Notes: generated from the letters alone by a model not told the origin. A stretch of DNA of 64,000 nucleotides from Candidatus Eiseniibacteriota bacterium (GCA_963717505.1 OY970342.1:2400001-2464000), one strand, 5' to 3'; shown: positions 55,567 through 63,827, numbered from the stretch's first letter. A program made the numbers and translations.

Positions 55567-58026
55567 CTACTTTACTAGGATCATTCGGGTCGAGCGAGCT
55601 TCCTGGGTGACACCGTTCCTGACCACCGCGCGGGCGAAGTAGACCCCGCTCGGCAGCGTGCGGCCCTGGGCGCGCAGTGCGAAGCGATGCGTGCCGGGTT
55701 CGTACCGGCCTTCGGCCAGACGAGCGACCTCACGCCCCGAGACGTCGTACGCGCGCATCGAAACCTCGGCAGCTTCCGGCAGATCGAGCGCCAGCTCGGC
55801 GCCGCGAGTGTAGAAGCGCAGCGCGCGCGGCGAGACGCGGTCGTCGACGTCGAGTGTGACCGGTTGGATCTGAACGGTGAACGTGGCCTCGTCGTAGATC
55901 GGCACCATCACCAGGCCCGCTCCCGGGTCAGCGCCGACGCACTCGACGAAGGCGCCCTCGTGCGAGCCGAACGCCATGACGCCAAAATCCTGGCCAGCGC
56001 CGGGATTGAAGCCCGCGCCGGTGGCGACCACCAGCCGCCCGTCGAGGTCCGCCGCACCCGAGACCGTGAGGTGACTGAACTGGCTGCCGTCGCTGGACAC
56101 CGCAATCCCGAGCTCGCCCTCGGGAAGCTGGAAGTAGTTGCCGTTGATCGCGAGTCCGGTGCCGGCGTCGGGGATCACGATGCCCGAGTTGTAGACGTCG
56201 GCGGTCACGGTGCCGCGTCCGCGTAGGGCGCCCAGAAGCATGAGCCCCTGGGGCACGGTGAGCGAACCGCCTTCGAGCGCCGTCTCGCCCGAGGTCTGGA
56301 GGTAGTCGGTCGCCGGATCCGCGATGAACGCGCCGCCGGTGGTGATCCTGTTCGTCCCCTCGATCGTGATCTGTGCGCCCTTGGCCCGGGTCGTCTTGCC
56401 GCTCTGGGTGATGAACACGGCGCCGGAACCAATCGTGACGTCTTCGAGAGTCGTTTCGCCGTGATTCCGGAACGAACCCGAGCCCGACCCGCTCAGAACG
56501 CCGCCGACGATCTTCGCCGTCGAGTTCCAGCCGAGCAGGACGTTGCCCTCGGCCACCAGCGTGCCGCCGGTGTTACGCACCGCCGAGCCCTGCTCGAAGC
56601 GCGCCTGGCCGGTCGCGGTGGTGGTCAGGGTGCCTTCATTCACGACGTCGACCGTCTTGACCCACAACGTGCCGCGCTTGACGTTCAGCACGTTCTCGTT
56701 CCGGATGCTTCGATCCTGGATCCATAGGACGCCGCCGGTGCAGTCGACGTCGAGCGTGCCCTGGTTGATCAGGTTGGCGGTGATCGTGCCACAGCCGCGA
56801 ATCGTGTGGCCGGCAGCGTTGGTCAACGGGTAGCCCCGCGGCGTGTTCAGCGTGCCGTTTTCGAGCTGCACCACGCCGCTCCCGGAAAACGCGACGCCGT
56901 TGGTCATGGTTCCGTCGGTGTTGATCTGGCCGGTCACCCGCACCAGGCCGTCGTTGATCAGCGAGCTGCCGGCCGCCATCAAGTCAATCTGGCCGTCGAC
57001 CAGGACCACGCCGTCGGCGGCGATGCGCAGGTTCTGCGGGGTCGCCTGCCACAGACGAACCACGCCGGTGCCGCTGGTCCGATGGACGGTGCCGTTGACC
57101 AATGCGTTCGAGCGGATGCGCAGGTCGCCGCCGTCCGACACCAACTCTCCGGTGGACAGGTTGTCGATCGTGCCCGAGTTGCCGAACGGCAAGTTGATCT
57201 CGAACGCGCCGCCGCCGGCGCCGGCGACGATCTCCCCCGAGTTCTTGACCAGCGGGAAGTCGATTTCCACCAGGCTGCTGTTCGTGACCCGCGTGGTCCC
57301 GGAGTTGAGCAGGTATTGCTTCACGCGCAACGTCTGGCCGGCGTCGGCGTGCAACAGTCCGTAGTTGTCGACCGGAACGATGATGGTTCCGGCGCCGCGG
57401 ACCGTGTGCTGATTGCCGTTGGTCAGCCAGAGCGTGGTCTGGGGCACTCCCAGTCCGCATGCCACGCGGCCGCCTTCGAGCAGCAGCGTGCCACTGCCGA
57501 TCAACACCGTGCTCGAAGTCAGGTGGAGCGCGTTCGTCAGCACCGGACCAATGACAATCGTACCGTCATTGGTGATGGTGCCCGCGGTGGTGATCGAGTC
57601 ACCCGGAGCGCAGCTCAGGATGCCGCCCCCCTGGTTGTGGAACTTCGAGCCGTCGAGCACGCCTCGGTATCGGACGACGGTTCCCGAGTTGTAGACATTG
57701 GTGATCGACGTGGTCGAGTAGCCGGCCAGATCGAGGGTAGCCCCACCAGCCAGCGTGAGCGCGTCGATCGACGGACTGGCATCGAGCGTCACCTGGTAGG
57801 CGCTGCCGAGCGTCGGCAGCACTGCGGTTTCGCCCACCGCATCGGGGACGTTGGCCGGATCCCAATTCCCCGGATCGGACCACACGCCACCCGCGGCGTT
57901 GGTCCAGGTGATCGTCACCGCGGCCGCGGTCGATGCTGCGATGGAACCGACACCCAGTGCCGCCAGGACGACGAGCGTGCACAGCCTCACGGGTGAGAGT
58001 GCCCTGGACGAGGACCGATCGGACAT
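55567..58026 (-). CDS. Secreted beta-helix/adhesin-like protein with T9SS-type CTD
   Basis: W...GG.WSD..NW start; N-x-G-T-rich repeats; LDLPEA..V.MRAYDVSGREVARL..G...G.H...LPSGVYFAR. Confidence 0.8.
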   Translation of the reverse strand: MSDRSSSRALSPVRLCTLVVLAALGVGSIAASTAAAVTITWTNAAGGVWSDPGNWDPANVPDAVGETAVLPTLGSAYQVTLDASPSIDALTLAGGATLDLAGYSTTSITNVYNSGTVVRYRGVLDGSKFHNQGGGILSCAPGDSITTAGTITNDGTIVIGPVLTNALHLTSSTVLIGSGTLLLEGGRVACGLGVPQTTLWLTNGNQHTVRGAGTIIVPVDNYGLLHADAGQTLRVKQYLLNSGTTRVTNSSLVEIDFPLVKNSGEIVAGAGGGAFEINLPFGNSGTIDNLSTGELVSDGGDLRIRSNALVNGTVHRTSGTGVVRLWQATPQNLRIAADGVVLVDGQIDLMAAGSSLINDGLVRVTGQINTDGTMTNGVAFSGSGVVQLENGTLNTPRGYPLTNAAGHTIRGCGTITANLINQGTLDVDCTGGVLWIQDRSIRNENVLNVKRGTLWVKTVDVVNEGTLTTTATGQARFEQGSAVRNTGGTLVAEGNVLLGWNSTAKIVGGVLSGSGSGSFRNHGETTLEDVTIGSGAVFITQSGKTTRAKGAQITIEGTNRITTGGAFIADPATDYLQTSGETALEGGSLTVPQGLMLLGALRGRGTVTADVYNSGIVIPDAGTGLAINGNYFQLPEGELGIAVSSDGSQFSHLTVSGAADLDGRLVVATGAGFNPGAGQDFGVMAFGSHEGAFVECVGADPGAGLVMVPIYDEATFTVQIQPVTLDVDDRVSPRALRFYTRGAELALDLPEAAEVSMRAYDVSGREVARLAEGRYEPGTHRFALRAQGRTLPSGVYFARAVVRNGVTQEARSTRMILVK

Positions 58027-59841: not shown

Positions 59842-60441
59842 ATGTCGGGCGATCGAGCGCTCATCGAGTTCGAAGCGGAGCGGGAGCGAGTCGCTCACGT
59901 GACGCGCCTGGGAATCGGCATGCCGATGGCCGGGTGTCTCTACTGGATTGCGGTCGGCTTCCTGCTCGGCGCGTTCAAGCCGGGGGCGGCGCTGGTCTAC
60001 TCGTTCGCGCTCACCGGCGTGGTGTTCCCGGTCGGATTCCTGCTCACCAAACTGGTGGGTGGCGACCTGTTCGCAAAGAGCGCGTCGCTGACCTCGCTCG
60101 GCATCATCCTGGCTGCGATCCAGCTGTTCTATTGGCCGGTGCTCATGGTCGTGTTCAGCCAGGCGCACGAATGGACGCCGTTCGTGCTCGCGGTCCTGTT
60201 CGGCTCGCACTTCCTGCCCTACCTGTGGCTCTACGCCAGCCGGGGGTACGCGGTCCTGGCGATCTCGACCTGCGTCGTGCCGACCATCGCCGTGATCGTT
60301 CGGCGCGATCCGCTCTACCACCACGTGCCGTGGATCGCCGCCGCCTGCTACGCGGTCGCGGTGTTCATCCTGTGGGGAGAGGTGCAGCGCCGGGCGGCAG
60401 CGCAGGCGCCTCAGGCGGCGAGCGTCTCGGCTTCGACGTAG
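59842..60441 (+). CDS. Hypothetical 6-TM membrane protein (DUF7010-like)
   Basis: GMPMAG.LYW and GSHFLPY.WLY.SR.Y; RBS GGAGG. Confidence 0.65.
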   Translation: MSGDRALIEFEAERERVAHVTRLGIGMPMAGCLYWIAVGFLLGAFKPGAALVYSFALTGVVFPVGFLLTKLVGGDLFAKSASLTSLGIILAAIQLFYWPVLMVVFSQAHEWTPFVLAVLFGSHFLPYLWLYASRGYAVLAISTCVVPTIAVIVRRDPLYHHVPWIAAACYAVAVFILWGEVQRRAAAQAPQAASVSAST

Positions 60442-61232
60442 CTACGCAGACGCTCCAGCTGATCGCGCGGAACGTAGTCGAACGCGACACCAATGCCGCC
60501 GGATCGCTGCCATCCCGGGTGCTGAACCCGGACCACGCGCGCGGACGCCTCGACGCGGTCGCCGTTCTCCAGCTCGATGTCGAGGTCGAGCCGGGTGCCG
60601 ACCGGGATCTCGCCGTTGGTTTCCAACAGGGCGCCGGTGACGCTGATGTCGACGATCCGCATCGCGGTGCTGCGCGCATCGTGGTGGATGACGCCCAGCG
60701 ACCGACGACGACGGCGGCGGGCCGGCGGGGGATCGGGGCCCGGGTGGGGCGGACGCGAACTGGGCGAGACGGCGCGGATCGCTTCGATCTGTTGCCGGAT
60801 CCGCGTGCACGCCGGCGCCAGGGCCGCGCGCAGAGCGTCGTCATTGCGGGCCCCGTGCTCGACGACGATCAGGTCGAGTCCCGAGGGCAGGAGGAACGGG
60901 ATCGTTCCCGGTTGGACCAGGAACGTGCGGCCGCGACCCAATCGGCCCATGAAGTACGCCGATTGCATCACCACCGTGTCGCGAAACGCGAACGCGTGCG
61001 CCGAGGGGCGTGGGACGTCGCCCGGAGCCAGCACGATCGCGGCGAAGTCGAAACGCCGGCCGCACTCCTCGAGTGCTTCGATCGGTCCGAGCGAGAGCAG
61101 CGTGCGCTCGGGGTTCCAGATCGTGCACTCCACGTCGGATTCGAGGTTGGCCTGGATCGCGCGGGCGATCCCATAACCCGCGGGCGACGAAGAGATGGCG
61201 AACAGACGCGAGCGCGGCAGCACGATCTTCAT
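60411..61232 (-). CDS. Cap12/Pycsar-type TIR-like domain fused to PilZ
   Basis: RLF.ISSS, ARAIQ.NL..DVECTIW, FDFAAIVL, RDTVVMQ..FMGRLGR.RTF, LPS.L and ALAPAC..IR, followed by RRRRRR and DISVTG...GVAF. Confidence 0.75.
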   Translation of the reverse strand: MKIVLPRSRLFAISSSPAGYGIARAIQANLESDVECTIWNPERTLLSLGPIEALEECGRRFDFAAIVLAPGDVPRPSAHAFAFRDTVVMQSAYFMGRLGRGRTFLVQPGTIPFLLPSGLDLIVVEHGARNDDALRAALAPACTRIRQQIEAIRAVSPSSRPPHPGPDPPPARRRRRRSLGVIHHDARSTAMRIVDISVTGALLETNGEIPVGTRLDLDIELENGDRVEASARVVRVQHPGWQRSGGIGVAFDYVPRDQLERLRSYVEAETLAA

Positions 61233-61858
61233 GCGATCTTCCGCGACGCGACGCGAACCACTTCGCGGCGCGAGATGCCGTTCGACTTACGCCAGGCCGT
61301 GCTCTCCCGATAGGCGCGCTCGAACTCCTGGACGCAATCCTCGACCCGGACCGGCTTCGGCCATTGTGCGGCTCGTTCCGCGACCGCGCGGGCGTGGACC
61401 GCAGTCGCCGACTGGCCGGGGAGGTGGACCATGGAGTGCCCCGGCCGCTTCTCGAGTCCCGTGTCCTTGGAAGTCGTCCAGCTGTCGCTGTTGCCGTCCT
61501 TCAGATGGCGGCCGATGTCGAACCACTGCCCGACCTGTGGATGCTCGTAGAGCGCTGCGTAGAGCGAGTCGCGGGGGTTGGCCATCAGACGAACCAGGAC
61601 GCCGGGCATCTCCTGGACCTGCCACACACCGCCGTCGAGGTAGCCGAGGCCGCGAAATTCCGCATACGTGGCGTCGGCCAGACCAGCGTTGCGCCACGGG
61701 GCCGGCCCCGCGGCGGACAATTTGATCGTGTCTGGCTGCTTGCCCAGGGCCGCAGCCGCGATCGCACGCCCGCCGACCGCCGCGATGACGAGACGCAGGA
61801 TCGGCTGGAGCAACCAGAGGGCAAGCCAGATCGCCCCCAGAATCAGAATCCACTTCAT
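61229..61858 (-). CDS. Hypothetical N-terminally membrane-anchored protein
   Basis: Hydrophobic N-terminus [17 protein letters not shown]; stop overlaps the TIR-PilZ start (ATGA). Confidence 0.7.
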
Positions 61859-62018
61859 GAGCCCCTCCGTAGGCCCCTCCGAGGCATCCCGGTTATCGGC
61901 CAAAACCCCCACCCGGCTTGAGCCGTCCGTTCACGTCCCGTATTCTCGTTCGCCGCGCGCCCACCGGCCGGCGCGTGGCCGTTCAGGAGCGACTCCCACC
62001 CTTTCAACGGACCGCACG

Positions 62019-63827
62019 ATGAACCGGAACCCGAAGCTCGAAGCATGGGTGCGCGACGTCGCCGCCCTGTGCCAGCCCGAAAGCGTCGTCTGGTGCGACG
62101 GCTCGGAGCAGGAGTACCAGAGGATGCTGAGCCTGATGATCCAGGCGGGCACGGCGATCCCCCTGAATTCCGAGAAGCGGCCCAACAGTATTCTCGTGCG
62201 GTCCGATCCGGCGGACGTCGCCCGGGTCGAGGAGTTCACCTTCATCTGCTCCCGGCATTCCGGCGACGCCGGTCCGACCAACAACTGGCGCGACCCGGAG
62301 AAGACCAAACGCACGCTGACCGAACTGTTCGCCGGCGCCATGCGCGGCCGCATCCTCTACGTGATCCCGTACAGCATGGGGCCGATCGGCTCGCCGATCG
62401 CCGGGATCGGCGTCGAACTCACCGACTCGCCGTACGTGGTCGCCAGCATGCACATCATGGCTCGGGTGGGCTCCCGAGTGCTCGAGGCCCTGAATCAGGA
62501 CGGCGAGTTCGTCCGCGGACTTCATTCCGTGGGCGCGCCGCTCGAGAGCAACGCGCCGGATTCCCCATGGCCTTGCAACGCGAAGACCAAGTACATCGCA
62601 CACTTCCCCGAGACGCGCGAGATCTGGTCGTACGGCTCGGGCTACGGCGGCAACGCGCTGCTCGGCAAGAAATGCCATGCGCTGCGGATCGCCTCGGTCC
62701 AAGCGCGCGACGAAGGCTGGATGGCCGAGCACATGCTGATTCTCGGCATCACCGACCCCAAGGGACGCAAGATCTACGTGGCCGCGGCGTTCCCGTCGGC
62801 CTGTGGCAAGACCAACCTGGCGATGCTCGAGCCGGCGCTGCCCGGCTGGAAGGTCGAGTGCGTCGGCGACGACATCGCGTGGATGAAGTTCGGGCCGGAG
62901 GGCCGGCTGCACGCGATCAATCCCGAGGCCGGCTTCTTCGGGGTCGCTCCGGGCACCAGCATGAAGAGCAACGCCAACGCGATGCGCACCACGGCCAAGA
63001 ACTCCATCTTCACCAACTGCGCGGTGACCTCCGACGGCGACGTCTGGTGGGAGGAGATGACCGAAACGCCGCCGGCAGCGCTGACCGACTGGCTACGCCG
63101 CCCGTGGACGCCGGCGTCCCGGCGCAAGGCGGCACATCCCAACGCGCGGTTCACGACCCCCGCCCGCCAATGTCCGGTGATCTCCTCCGAGTGGGAGAAT
63201 CCGGCCGGCGTGCCGATCTCGGCGATCCTGTTCGGCGGCCGGCGTGCGGGCGTGGTGCCCCTGGTCAACGAAGCCCTGTCGTGGCGCCACGGGACGTTCC
63301 TCGGCTCGATCATGAGCAGCGAAACCACGGCCGCGGCGGCGGGCAAGGTCGGGACGCTCCGGCATGATCCGTTCGCGATGCTGCCGTTCTGCGGCTATCA
63401 CATGGGCGACTACTTCGCGCACTGGCTCGCGATGGGGGAAAAGGCCGACGCCGCCAAGCTGCCGAAGGTTTTCTATGTGAATTGGTTTCGTAAGGATGCG
63501 AACGGCAAGTTCCTGTGGCCGGGCTACTCCGACAACGCGCGCGTGCTCAAGTGGATCTTCGAGCGTGTCACCGGTGGCGGCCAGGCGGTCGACACCCCGA
63601 TCGGGCGACTGCCTGCGCCGGGAGCGCTGGACCTGACCGGGCTCGACCTGACCGACCAGGCGGCGCGCGATCTCCTGCAAGTCGACGTCGAGGGCTGGAC
63701 GGCCGAGCTGCCGGCGATCAAGCAGCACTTCGAGAAATTCGGGGCCAAGTTGCCGGAGGGGTTGCGCGCAGAACTGGCGGCGCTCGAGCAGCGGCTACAG
63801 GTGGCTTCGGTGGCGACGCGCGCCTAG
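62019..63827 (+). CDS. pckG: Phosphoenolpyruvate carboxykinase (GTP)
   Basis: [48 protein letters not shown] and NWFRK. Confidence 0.97.

Follow-up and report, generated by a model that had tools for sequence, protein, structure and literature searches.

The window analysed here, a stretch of 64,000 nucleotides from a Candidatus Eiseniibacteriota bacterium (GCA_963717505.1 OY970342.1:2400001-2464000), carries on its minus strand, at 60411-61232, a gene whose product (P0001) joins an N-terminal TIR domain of the Cap12/PycTIR type to a C-terminal PilZ domain. We read P0001 as a cytoplasmic receptor of cyclic di-GMP (c-di-GMP) with a non-catalytic TIR output domain, which would act as an adaptor and not as an enzyme, and we put the probability of this reading at roughly 0.55. 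Judged by its sequence, P0001 would be a derivative of a TIR-PilZ family in which the other members have kept the look of NADases gated by c-di-GMP, i.e., of enzymes cleaving nicotinamide adenine dinucleotide (NAD+).

The gene is an intact open reading frame (ORF) with an ATG start, encoding 273 aa with no stop or frameshift, and is the only match of the family profile in the genome. A preliminary description, made from the DNA alone, had proposed a TIR-PilZ fusion at this place; the ORF proved to be as described, with Pfam, PADLOC, PDB and fold matches for the two domains. Both profile matches lay above the curated cut-offs, for PilZ (PF07238, residues 177-267) with an E-value of 3e-12 and 47.2 bits (cut-off 22.5) and for CAP12-PCTIR_TIR (PF10137, residues 13-109) with 9.4e-10 and 39 bits (cut-off 24.7). 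PADLOC matched residues 7-153 to the 'Effector TIR' models of CBASS (2e-22) and to PycTIR (2.5e-18), and the nearest PDB entries by sequence were PycTIR (8jsj, 6.8e-7), Cap12 (9lmq, 1.6e-6) and SfSTING (7un8, 7e-4). With the NCBIfam Cap12 equivalog models, whose cut-off is 450 bits, P0001 reached 38.5 and 18.2. No STING family appeared among the Pfam matches of P0001, even at E-values up to 10, and Pfam did not find in it the cyclic nucleotide monophosphate (cNMP)-binding domain PF00027, which is present in the relatives P0060-P0063. A GDSL-lipase identity was rejected, the Pfam match (E 0.06) being under the cut-off.

The TIR domain covers residues 8-155 (60768-61211), the Pro-rich linker residues 156-169 (60726-60767), and the PilZ domain with its C-terminal helix residues 170-268 (60429-60725). 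The Cap12/PycTIR motif pattern described for the N-terminus is read in P0001 as LFAISSS, which corresponds to the family motif F-IGSS, VECTIW, FDFAA and YFMGRLG, and the altered motifs are APGDV (TPDDV in the family), FRDTVVMQ (PRDNV.FE) and LLPSGL (LPSDL). The two PilZ motifs follow the linker as proposed: the Arg run R172-R177 (RRRRRR, 60702-60719), which holds RxxxR, and DISVTG at residues 195-200 (60633-60650), which corresponds to (D/N)xSxxG.

An AlphaFold2 model of P0001, built on 50 relatives, had a mean predicted local distance difference test (pLDDT) score of 85 and was confident over most of the TIR domain. It comprises an alpha/beta domain at residues 8-154, with alternating strands and helices from E8-14 to H131-154, a disordered linker (pLDDT below 50 at 159-175), and a beta-barrel (E180-253) followed by a helix (256-272). 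When the model was compared with the PDB by Foldseek, TIR-STING chains came first (9lmq, 9lmr and 7un8, E 7e-8 to 1e-5), and the barrel matched the PilZ protein MotI/DgrA (5vx6, E 2.8e-4, root-mean-square deviation 2.3 over 100 columns), so that the structural comparison called for by the preliminary description returned a TIR-STING match for the N-terminal half and a PilZ match for the barrel. Matches to EF-Tu, with deviations of at least 15, were discarded as chance overlays of a Rossmann fold plus a barrel. The idea that PilZ substitutes for STING is supported in that PilZ stands at the place of the STING, SAVED or cNMP sensors of Cap12/PycTIR-type effectors. Descent from TIR-STING in particular is not indicated, since by sequence the TIR of P0001 is as close to PycTIR and many other Cap12-type TIRs as to TIR-STING.

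The central observation concerns the NAD+ pocket. According to the cryo-EM study of SfSTING (PMC9402430), nicotinamide stacks on F6, W33, F37 and L47, the phosphates and ribose are held by S10, R78 and N80, catalysis falls to E84, and the site is completed by D110 of the dimer mate; the same source describes an alphaC helix that carries the catalytic Glu and makes the nonpolar core of the TIR dimer. These nine residues fit the 7un8 chain at offset 8 in our alignment. Five of the nine are kept in P0001 (F6 as F11, W33 as W39, L47 as L54, S10 as S16 and R78 as R84) and four are changed, the catalytic Glu and the trans Asp included. The position of E84 is occupied by Q90 (codon CAA, 60963-60965), that of N80, which contacts ribose and phosphate, by T86 (60975-60977), that of D110, which completes the active site of the neighbouring TIR, by G118 (60879-60881), and that of F37, which stacks on nicotinamide, by T44 (61101-61103), this last column being uncertain by one residue, because the family alignment gives T44 and the pairwise alignment R43 beside a gap. 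Among the Glu-keeping members of the family these positions are Asn at 86 in 37 of 39, Asp at 118 in 34 of 39 and Phe at 44 in 35 of 39. P0002, an 84%-identical protein, has S86, Q90, G118, N44 and LPSG, matching the P0001 pattern. In no part of the TIR is conservation higher than in the alphaC helix, and this holds for every member, Glu-less ones included (G92, F94, G96, G99 and R102 in at least 90%). With the catalytic Glu, the ribose Asn, the trans Asp and the stacking Phe replaced, the TIR of P0001 is predicted to be no longer able to cleave NAD+; the active site is dismantled at Q90, T86, G118 and T44, in keeping with the earlier proposal of a probably inactive TIR.

The Gln codon, CAA at 60965-60963, reads as previously stated, and we do not take it for a sequencing slip, because P0002 also has Gln, a 151-base contig from run X2 is identical to the window across codon 90, and a 497-base contig from run X1, 96% identical with 20 differences, carries CAG. 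A GAA (Glu) in the reads would have spoken against an inactive TIR, and both contigs encode Gln (CAA in X2, CAG in X1). No RNA run is listed for the sequence; the DNA runs share only 0.04-0.22 of sampled words, and no habitat was inferred.

A word-indexed search with P0001 returned 65 proteins, about 50 of them full-length TIR-PilZ fusions of 230-333 aa; identity to P0003-P0037 was 36-46% over 93-100% of the length, and against the family profile P0001 gave an E-value of 1e-94 with homology over both domains. Searched exhaustively, a set of 1.84 billion cluster representatives yielded 12 matches below 1e-30; about 17 of the best matches span nearly the whole query, the others being TIR-only or PilZ-only. 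For the family tree we used database proteins and translated locus ORFs covering at least 225 profile positions, partial ORFs being left out; removal of 14 duplicates or substrings from 104 rows left 90, to which five TIR-only outgroup proteins were added, and the tree was a quick IQ-TREE run with support from the Shimodaira-Hasegawa-like approximate likelihood ratio test only. Whether any homologs keep Glu was a question raised at the outset, and 39 of the 90 rows do. Forty-nine rows form one Glu-less clade (support 100) with R, Q, P, G, H, M or A at the Glu position, and the window pair, P0001 with P0002, falls outside it (support 100), among Glu-keeping rows. Because the stem of the pair is long (1.3 changes per column), its exact position is unsure, its exclusion from the 49-row clade being unaffected. 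With an outgroup that is all Glu, the minimum number of state changes is two, so that the catalytic Glu appears to have been lost independently at least twice in the family, once in the window lineage and once in the 49-member clade.

The automatic annotation of the Joint Genome Institute lists both the TIR and the PilZ domain for some members, so that databases already show this unstudied architecture. The literature searched yielded no paper describing a TIR-PilZ fusion, although subscription journals may still list the architecture, and recent TIR surveys naming PF10137 do not mention PilZ, although their supplements may. Thirteen pattern matches on viral contigs included no TIR-PilZ relative. 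Four metagenome proteins (P0051, P0053, P0055 and P0057; 386-440 aa) are fusions of a patatin-like phospholipase to PilZ, the PilZ being 45-53% identical to that of P0001 over the aligned part; by this resemblance, the same type of sensor would be joined to a second effector-type domain. A patatin-like effector domain also occurs in CBASS (CapV).

Two lines of comparison bear on the maintenance of the TIR after loss of its active site. Between P0001 and P0002 identity is 84% in the TIR and 87% in PilZ versus 50% in the linker; between P0001 and nine Glu-keeping members it is 38% in the TIR and 51% in PilZ, and among those nine it is 57% and 59%, respectively. This suggests for the TIR of the window lineage a burst of change followed by constraint. 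The second line comes from the X1 contigs, which cover only 60514-61007 and 61030-61180 at a depth of about 2.9 and in which 20 codons differ from the window, 15 synonymously and 5 nonsynonymously; in the covered TIR part the count is 8 synonymous versus 1 nonsynonymous, and codon 90 changes from CAA to CAG. The data are thin and both lines agree that the TIR fold, alphaC and the five retained pocket residues are probably kept under purifying selection, which would make the TIR an output module and not a relic. The earlier proposal of a defence effector domesticated into c-di-GMP signalling fits such selection in a genome with ordinary GGDEF signalling.

The motifs RxxxR and (D/N)xSxxG define c-di-GMP-binding PilZ domains. 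In P0001 the Arg run lies 18 residues before D195-G200; every one of the 90 family rows carries S197 and G200, and Arg at the R172 position is shared by all 39 Glu-keeping rows, by 47 of the 49 degenerate rows and by the window pair. With both motifs intact, binding of c-di-GMP by the PilZ domain of P0001 is predicted.

The host genome, a single 4.16-Mb contig scored 86.68% complete, has six GGDEF matches, all outside the window, and one GGDEF-EAL gene, whereas SMODS CD-NTase (PF18144) gave no match; the remark that no cyclase is encoded nearby therefore stands. The genome has one PF10137 match and one PilZ match, both of them the P0001 gene. Its only EAL match (G000:C1:1264293-1265529, outside the window) follows a GGDEF domain and is split between two frames near 1265260; the phosphodiesterase may be broken, or the split may come from a frameshift or a sequencing error. 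In the taxonomic family of the host, PilZ matches occur in 62 of 89 genomes, usually one or two per genome, and the TIR-PilZ protein may have displaced the usual PilZ receptor of the lineage.

The neighbours of the gene encode a 4-alpha-glucanotransferase (MalQ), a DUF7010 membrane protein, an upstream membrane protein and a GTP-type phosphoenolpyruvate carboxykinase (PEPCK); Pfam found no defence gene or cyclase among the neighbouring ORFs. The upstream gene (61229-61912, minus strand, 227 codons) overlaps the TIR-PilZ start codon with its stop (ATGA), so that the two are probably co-transcribed. Its 227-aa product has no Pfam match, and its Atlas clusters are named 'hypothetical protein' only. 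The gene is present in 44 of the 89 genomes of the taxonomic family, TIR-PilZ being absent otherwise, and in G096 and G097 it retains the divergent PEPCK neighbour with nothing TIR-PilZ-like after it; since it occurs in relatives without TIR-PilZ, the latter appears to have been added behind an older gene in the host lineage. In G097 the PEPCK orthologue (L084:350-2132) aligns in several overlapping pieces, as if frameshifted. The TIR-PilZ gene and the convergent DUF7010 gene share the last 31 bases of their 3' ends (60411-60441), and a promoter and terminator scan of 60200-62200 found nothing. Elsewhere in the window, 55567-58026 (minus strand) encodes an 819-aa protein with a signal-peptide-like N-terminus, possibly a secreted surface protein, whose C-terminal match to the FlgD Ig-like domain is weak (22.7 bits, cut-off 27).

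A scan of the genome collection gave six TIR-PilZ loci, all titled Acidobacteriota; the locus searches used small alignments, and the peptide patterns favour DIS[VLM][TS]GALL members and may under-sample others. Full-length TIR-PilZ genes were present in 4 of 401 sampled Acidobacteriota genomes, and in one order in 7 of 39. When the neighbourhoods of 15 loci (106 ORFs) were surveyed with Pfam, a radical-SAM/CofH_C (Mqn-like) gene lay upstream of TIR-PilZ in 11 of the 15 Acidobacteriota loci and a DUF167 (YggU) gene directly 5' of the Glu-less TIR-PilZ gene in 6 of 15, and DUF6159, PD40 and enoyl-CoA hydratase genes recurred downstream. No GGDEF or SMODS domain was found among the 106 ORFs. The Glu-less Acidobacteriota clade thus sits in a stable chromosomal neighbourhood and not in a defence island. 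The conserved neighbourhood was seen at L006, L008, L009, L010, L015, L022, L023, L024, L031, L034 and L042; VitK2_biosynth lies upstream in L006 and L024, and patatin-like and purF-like genes occur further upstream in Acidobacteriota loci.

For Glu-keeping genes, neighbourhoods were available at two loci only: L069:10000-10842 adjoins asparagine synthase and glycosyltransferase genes, and L071:3945-4832 adjoins DUF4139 and DUF2950 genes. No cyclase was found near either gene; their genomes, G572 and G492, have 12 and 10 GGDEF matches, respectively, and no SMODS match above the cut-off. To the question whether any homologs keep Glu or sit beside CD-NTase or diguanylate cyclase genes, the answer was yes for the Glu and, in the loci scanned, no for such neighbours. 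Glu-keeping and Glu-less TIR-PilZ copies occur together in G492 (L071:3945-4832 and L070:9578-10669), and G572 has, besides its Glu-keeping L069:10000-10842, a PilZ match at L067 whose N-terminal half is further degenerated. The L071 protein keeps Glu, but AGN replaces the RDN before it.

As to mechanism, we propose that c-di-GMP made by the GGDEF cyclases of the cell would bind the Arg run and the PilZ barrel, and that binding at this linker-PilZ junction would fix the flexible linker and reposition the TIR. The repositioned TIR might then signal through changed protein contacts, which could be self-contacts made by alphaC, the arrangement of TIR-STING, or contacts to a partner protein, P0001 acting as an adaptor like YcgR or MotI. 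Since alphaC is the best conserved stretch in every member and forms the dimer core in SfSTING, self-association of the TIR through alphaC is our first guess, by analogy. A prediction of two P0001 chains with two c-di-GMP molecules scored 0.31 against a mark of 0.42 (runs 0.48, 0.15 and 0.31), which we count neither for nor against oligomerisation.

Other explanations were weighed against this adaptor reading. That P0001 is still an active, c-di-GMP-triggered NADase, i.e., an abortive-infection or growth-arrest effector in which Gln or another residue replaces Glu, might be argued from the retained fold and five pocket residues and from the 39 relatives that look catalytically competent; we consider it very improbable, since four pocket residues have changed together, Glu and the trans Asp among them, and the protein has no partner cyclase in a genome that produces c-di-GMP as a matter of routine. 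Mutation of the equivalent Glu of a Cap12-type TIR, moreover, abolished toxicity and, without a crowding agent, NADase activity in the study of the amoeba protein TirC (10.64898/2026.04.30.722052). It also seems unlikely that function lies in the PilZ half alone, with the TIR carried along as a neutral passenger in decay. The steeper divergence of the TIR than of PilZ from Glu-keeping relatives (38% versus 51%, compared with 57% and 59% within those relatives) would fit decay, as would the deletions in the TIR of the other Glu-less clade, which often falls below the Pfam threshold, but the TIR of P0001 has stayed 84% identical to that of P0002 while the linker fell to 50%, synonymous changes outnumber nonsynonymous ones eight to one in its covered part, the reading frame has no stop or frameshift, and the AlphaFold2 model is confident over most of the domain.

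A coincidence sensor, in which the dead TIR would bind NAD+ or an NAD-derived nucleotide uncleaved and so integrate redox or NAD state with c-di-GMP, is somewhat less improbable than either of these, though still doubtful: the window pair has kept the nicotinamide-stacking and phosphate-holding residues F11, W39, L54, S16 and R84 and lost the catalytic ones, yet the equivalents of F37 and N80 in the pocket have changed, and the needs of folding alone may account for the residues that were kept. Finally, the PilZ domain might bind another ligand or none, leaving P0001 unrelated to c-di-GMP. Some PilZ domains do not bind c-di-GMP, and the match of P0001 to NCBIfam TIGR02266, the model of the Myxococcus PilZ paralogue, is below the cut-off; with both motifs intact and nearly invariant in the 90 rows, and with enzymes making and breaking c-di-GMP encoded in the genome, we regard this as improbable, about as much so as the passenger.

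Several points weigh against the reading of P0001 as a c-di-GMP-responsive adaptor. The evidence for selection consists of one protein relative and two short, low-depth contigs from one run, and the five retained NAD-pocket residues could mean ligand binding and not a pure scaffold. The genome being scored 86.68% complete, a second PilZ protein or another type of cyclase could have been missed. The upstream gene, present without TIR-PilZ in relatives, is not a co-evolving partner, and, since of 206 genomes of the phylum the host genome alone has a full-length TIR-PilZ, the gene may be a fairly recent acquisition with a marginal role.

Compared with known systems, P0001 resembles Cap12/TIR-STING (SfSTING, 7UN8; 9LMQ/9LMR) in having an N-terminal PF10137 TIR followed by a C-terminal predicted c-di-GMP sensor and in keeping alphaC, TIR-STING chains being the best structural matches of the model. 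It differs in that the sensor is a PilZ beta-barrel, the equivalents of Glu, N80, D110 and F37 are replaced, no CD-NTase (PF18144) lies beside the gene or in the genome, and the host has ordinary GGDEF signalling. PycTIR (8JSJ), a Pycsar effector, is the best PDB sequence match for the TIR domain, but it has an N-terminal cNMP sensor and a C-terminal TIR and works with a pyrimidine cyclase, whereas in P0001 the TIR precedes PilZ, there is no cNMP domain and no cyclase is adjacent. Like YcgR and MotI/DgrA (5VX6), P0001 carries RxxxR in the linker between its domains and DxSxxG within the barrel, is small and cytoplasmic, and is expected to have no enzymatic output; unlike them, its N-terminal domain is a TIR and not PilZN or a second PilZ, and the neighbourhood indicates no flagellar or other target. 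We lean towards the view that P0001 is built like a Cap12-type effector and works like a PilZ adaptor; of the features that define Cap12 it lacks the STING domain, the Glu and the CD-NTase, and of those that define PycTIR the cNMP domain. A parallel is offered by TirB, TirC and TirD of Dictyostelium, in which a Cap12-type immune TIR has been taken into another physiology, oligomerisation and yeast toxicity of TirD being independent of the catalytic Glu (10.64898/2026.04.30.722052); these proteins differ from P0001 in being eukaryotic, in keeping Glu and in lacking PilZ.

P0001 alone is a derived, predictedly inactive member, and the wider family, with its stand-alone Glu-keeping genes in GGDEF-rich bacteria and its two apparently independent inactivations, is more interesting. 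As a tentative proposal, to which we give rather low credence, TIR-PilZ may represent a second, CBASS-independent meeting of c-di-GMP and TIR NADase, in which Glu-keeping forms would couple housekeeping c-di-GMP to NAD+ cleavage or to an NAD-derived signal. The enzyme would have been converted at least twice into a non-catalytic adaptor, P0001 being one such, which may read NAD state together with c-di-GMP, and the patatin-PilZ proteins would also fall into this effector-on-PilZ class.

TIR-STING is assumed to function because c-di-GMP is set aside for defence in its hosts. In the TIR-PilZ family a Cap12-type TIR is joined to the classic c-di-GMP receptor, and the bacteria concerned employ c-di-GMP daily, which raises the question of how a c-di-GMP-gated NADase is tolerated and what purpose it has. 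P0001 and the Acidobacteriota clade would be two natural examples of an enzyme turned off with its domain retained, and such enzyme-dead TIR-PilZ proteins would parallel, in bacteria, the adaptor-type TIRs known from animals. They would offer a compact system for asking what role the TIR fold has once NAD+ cleavage is gone, and in the host genome studied here P0001 is the only recognisable PilZ receptor.

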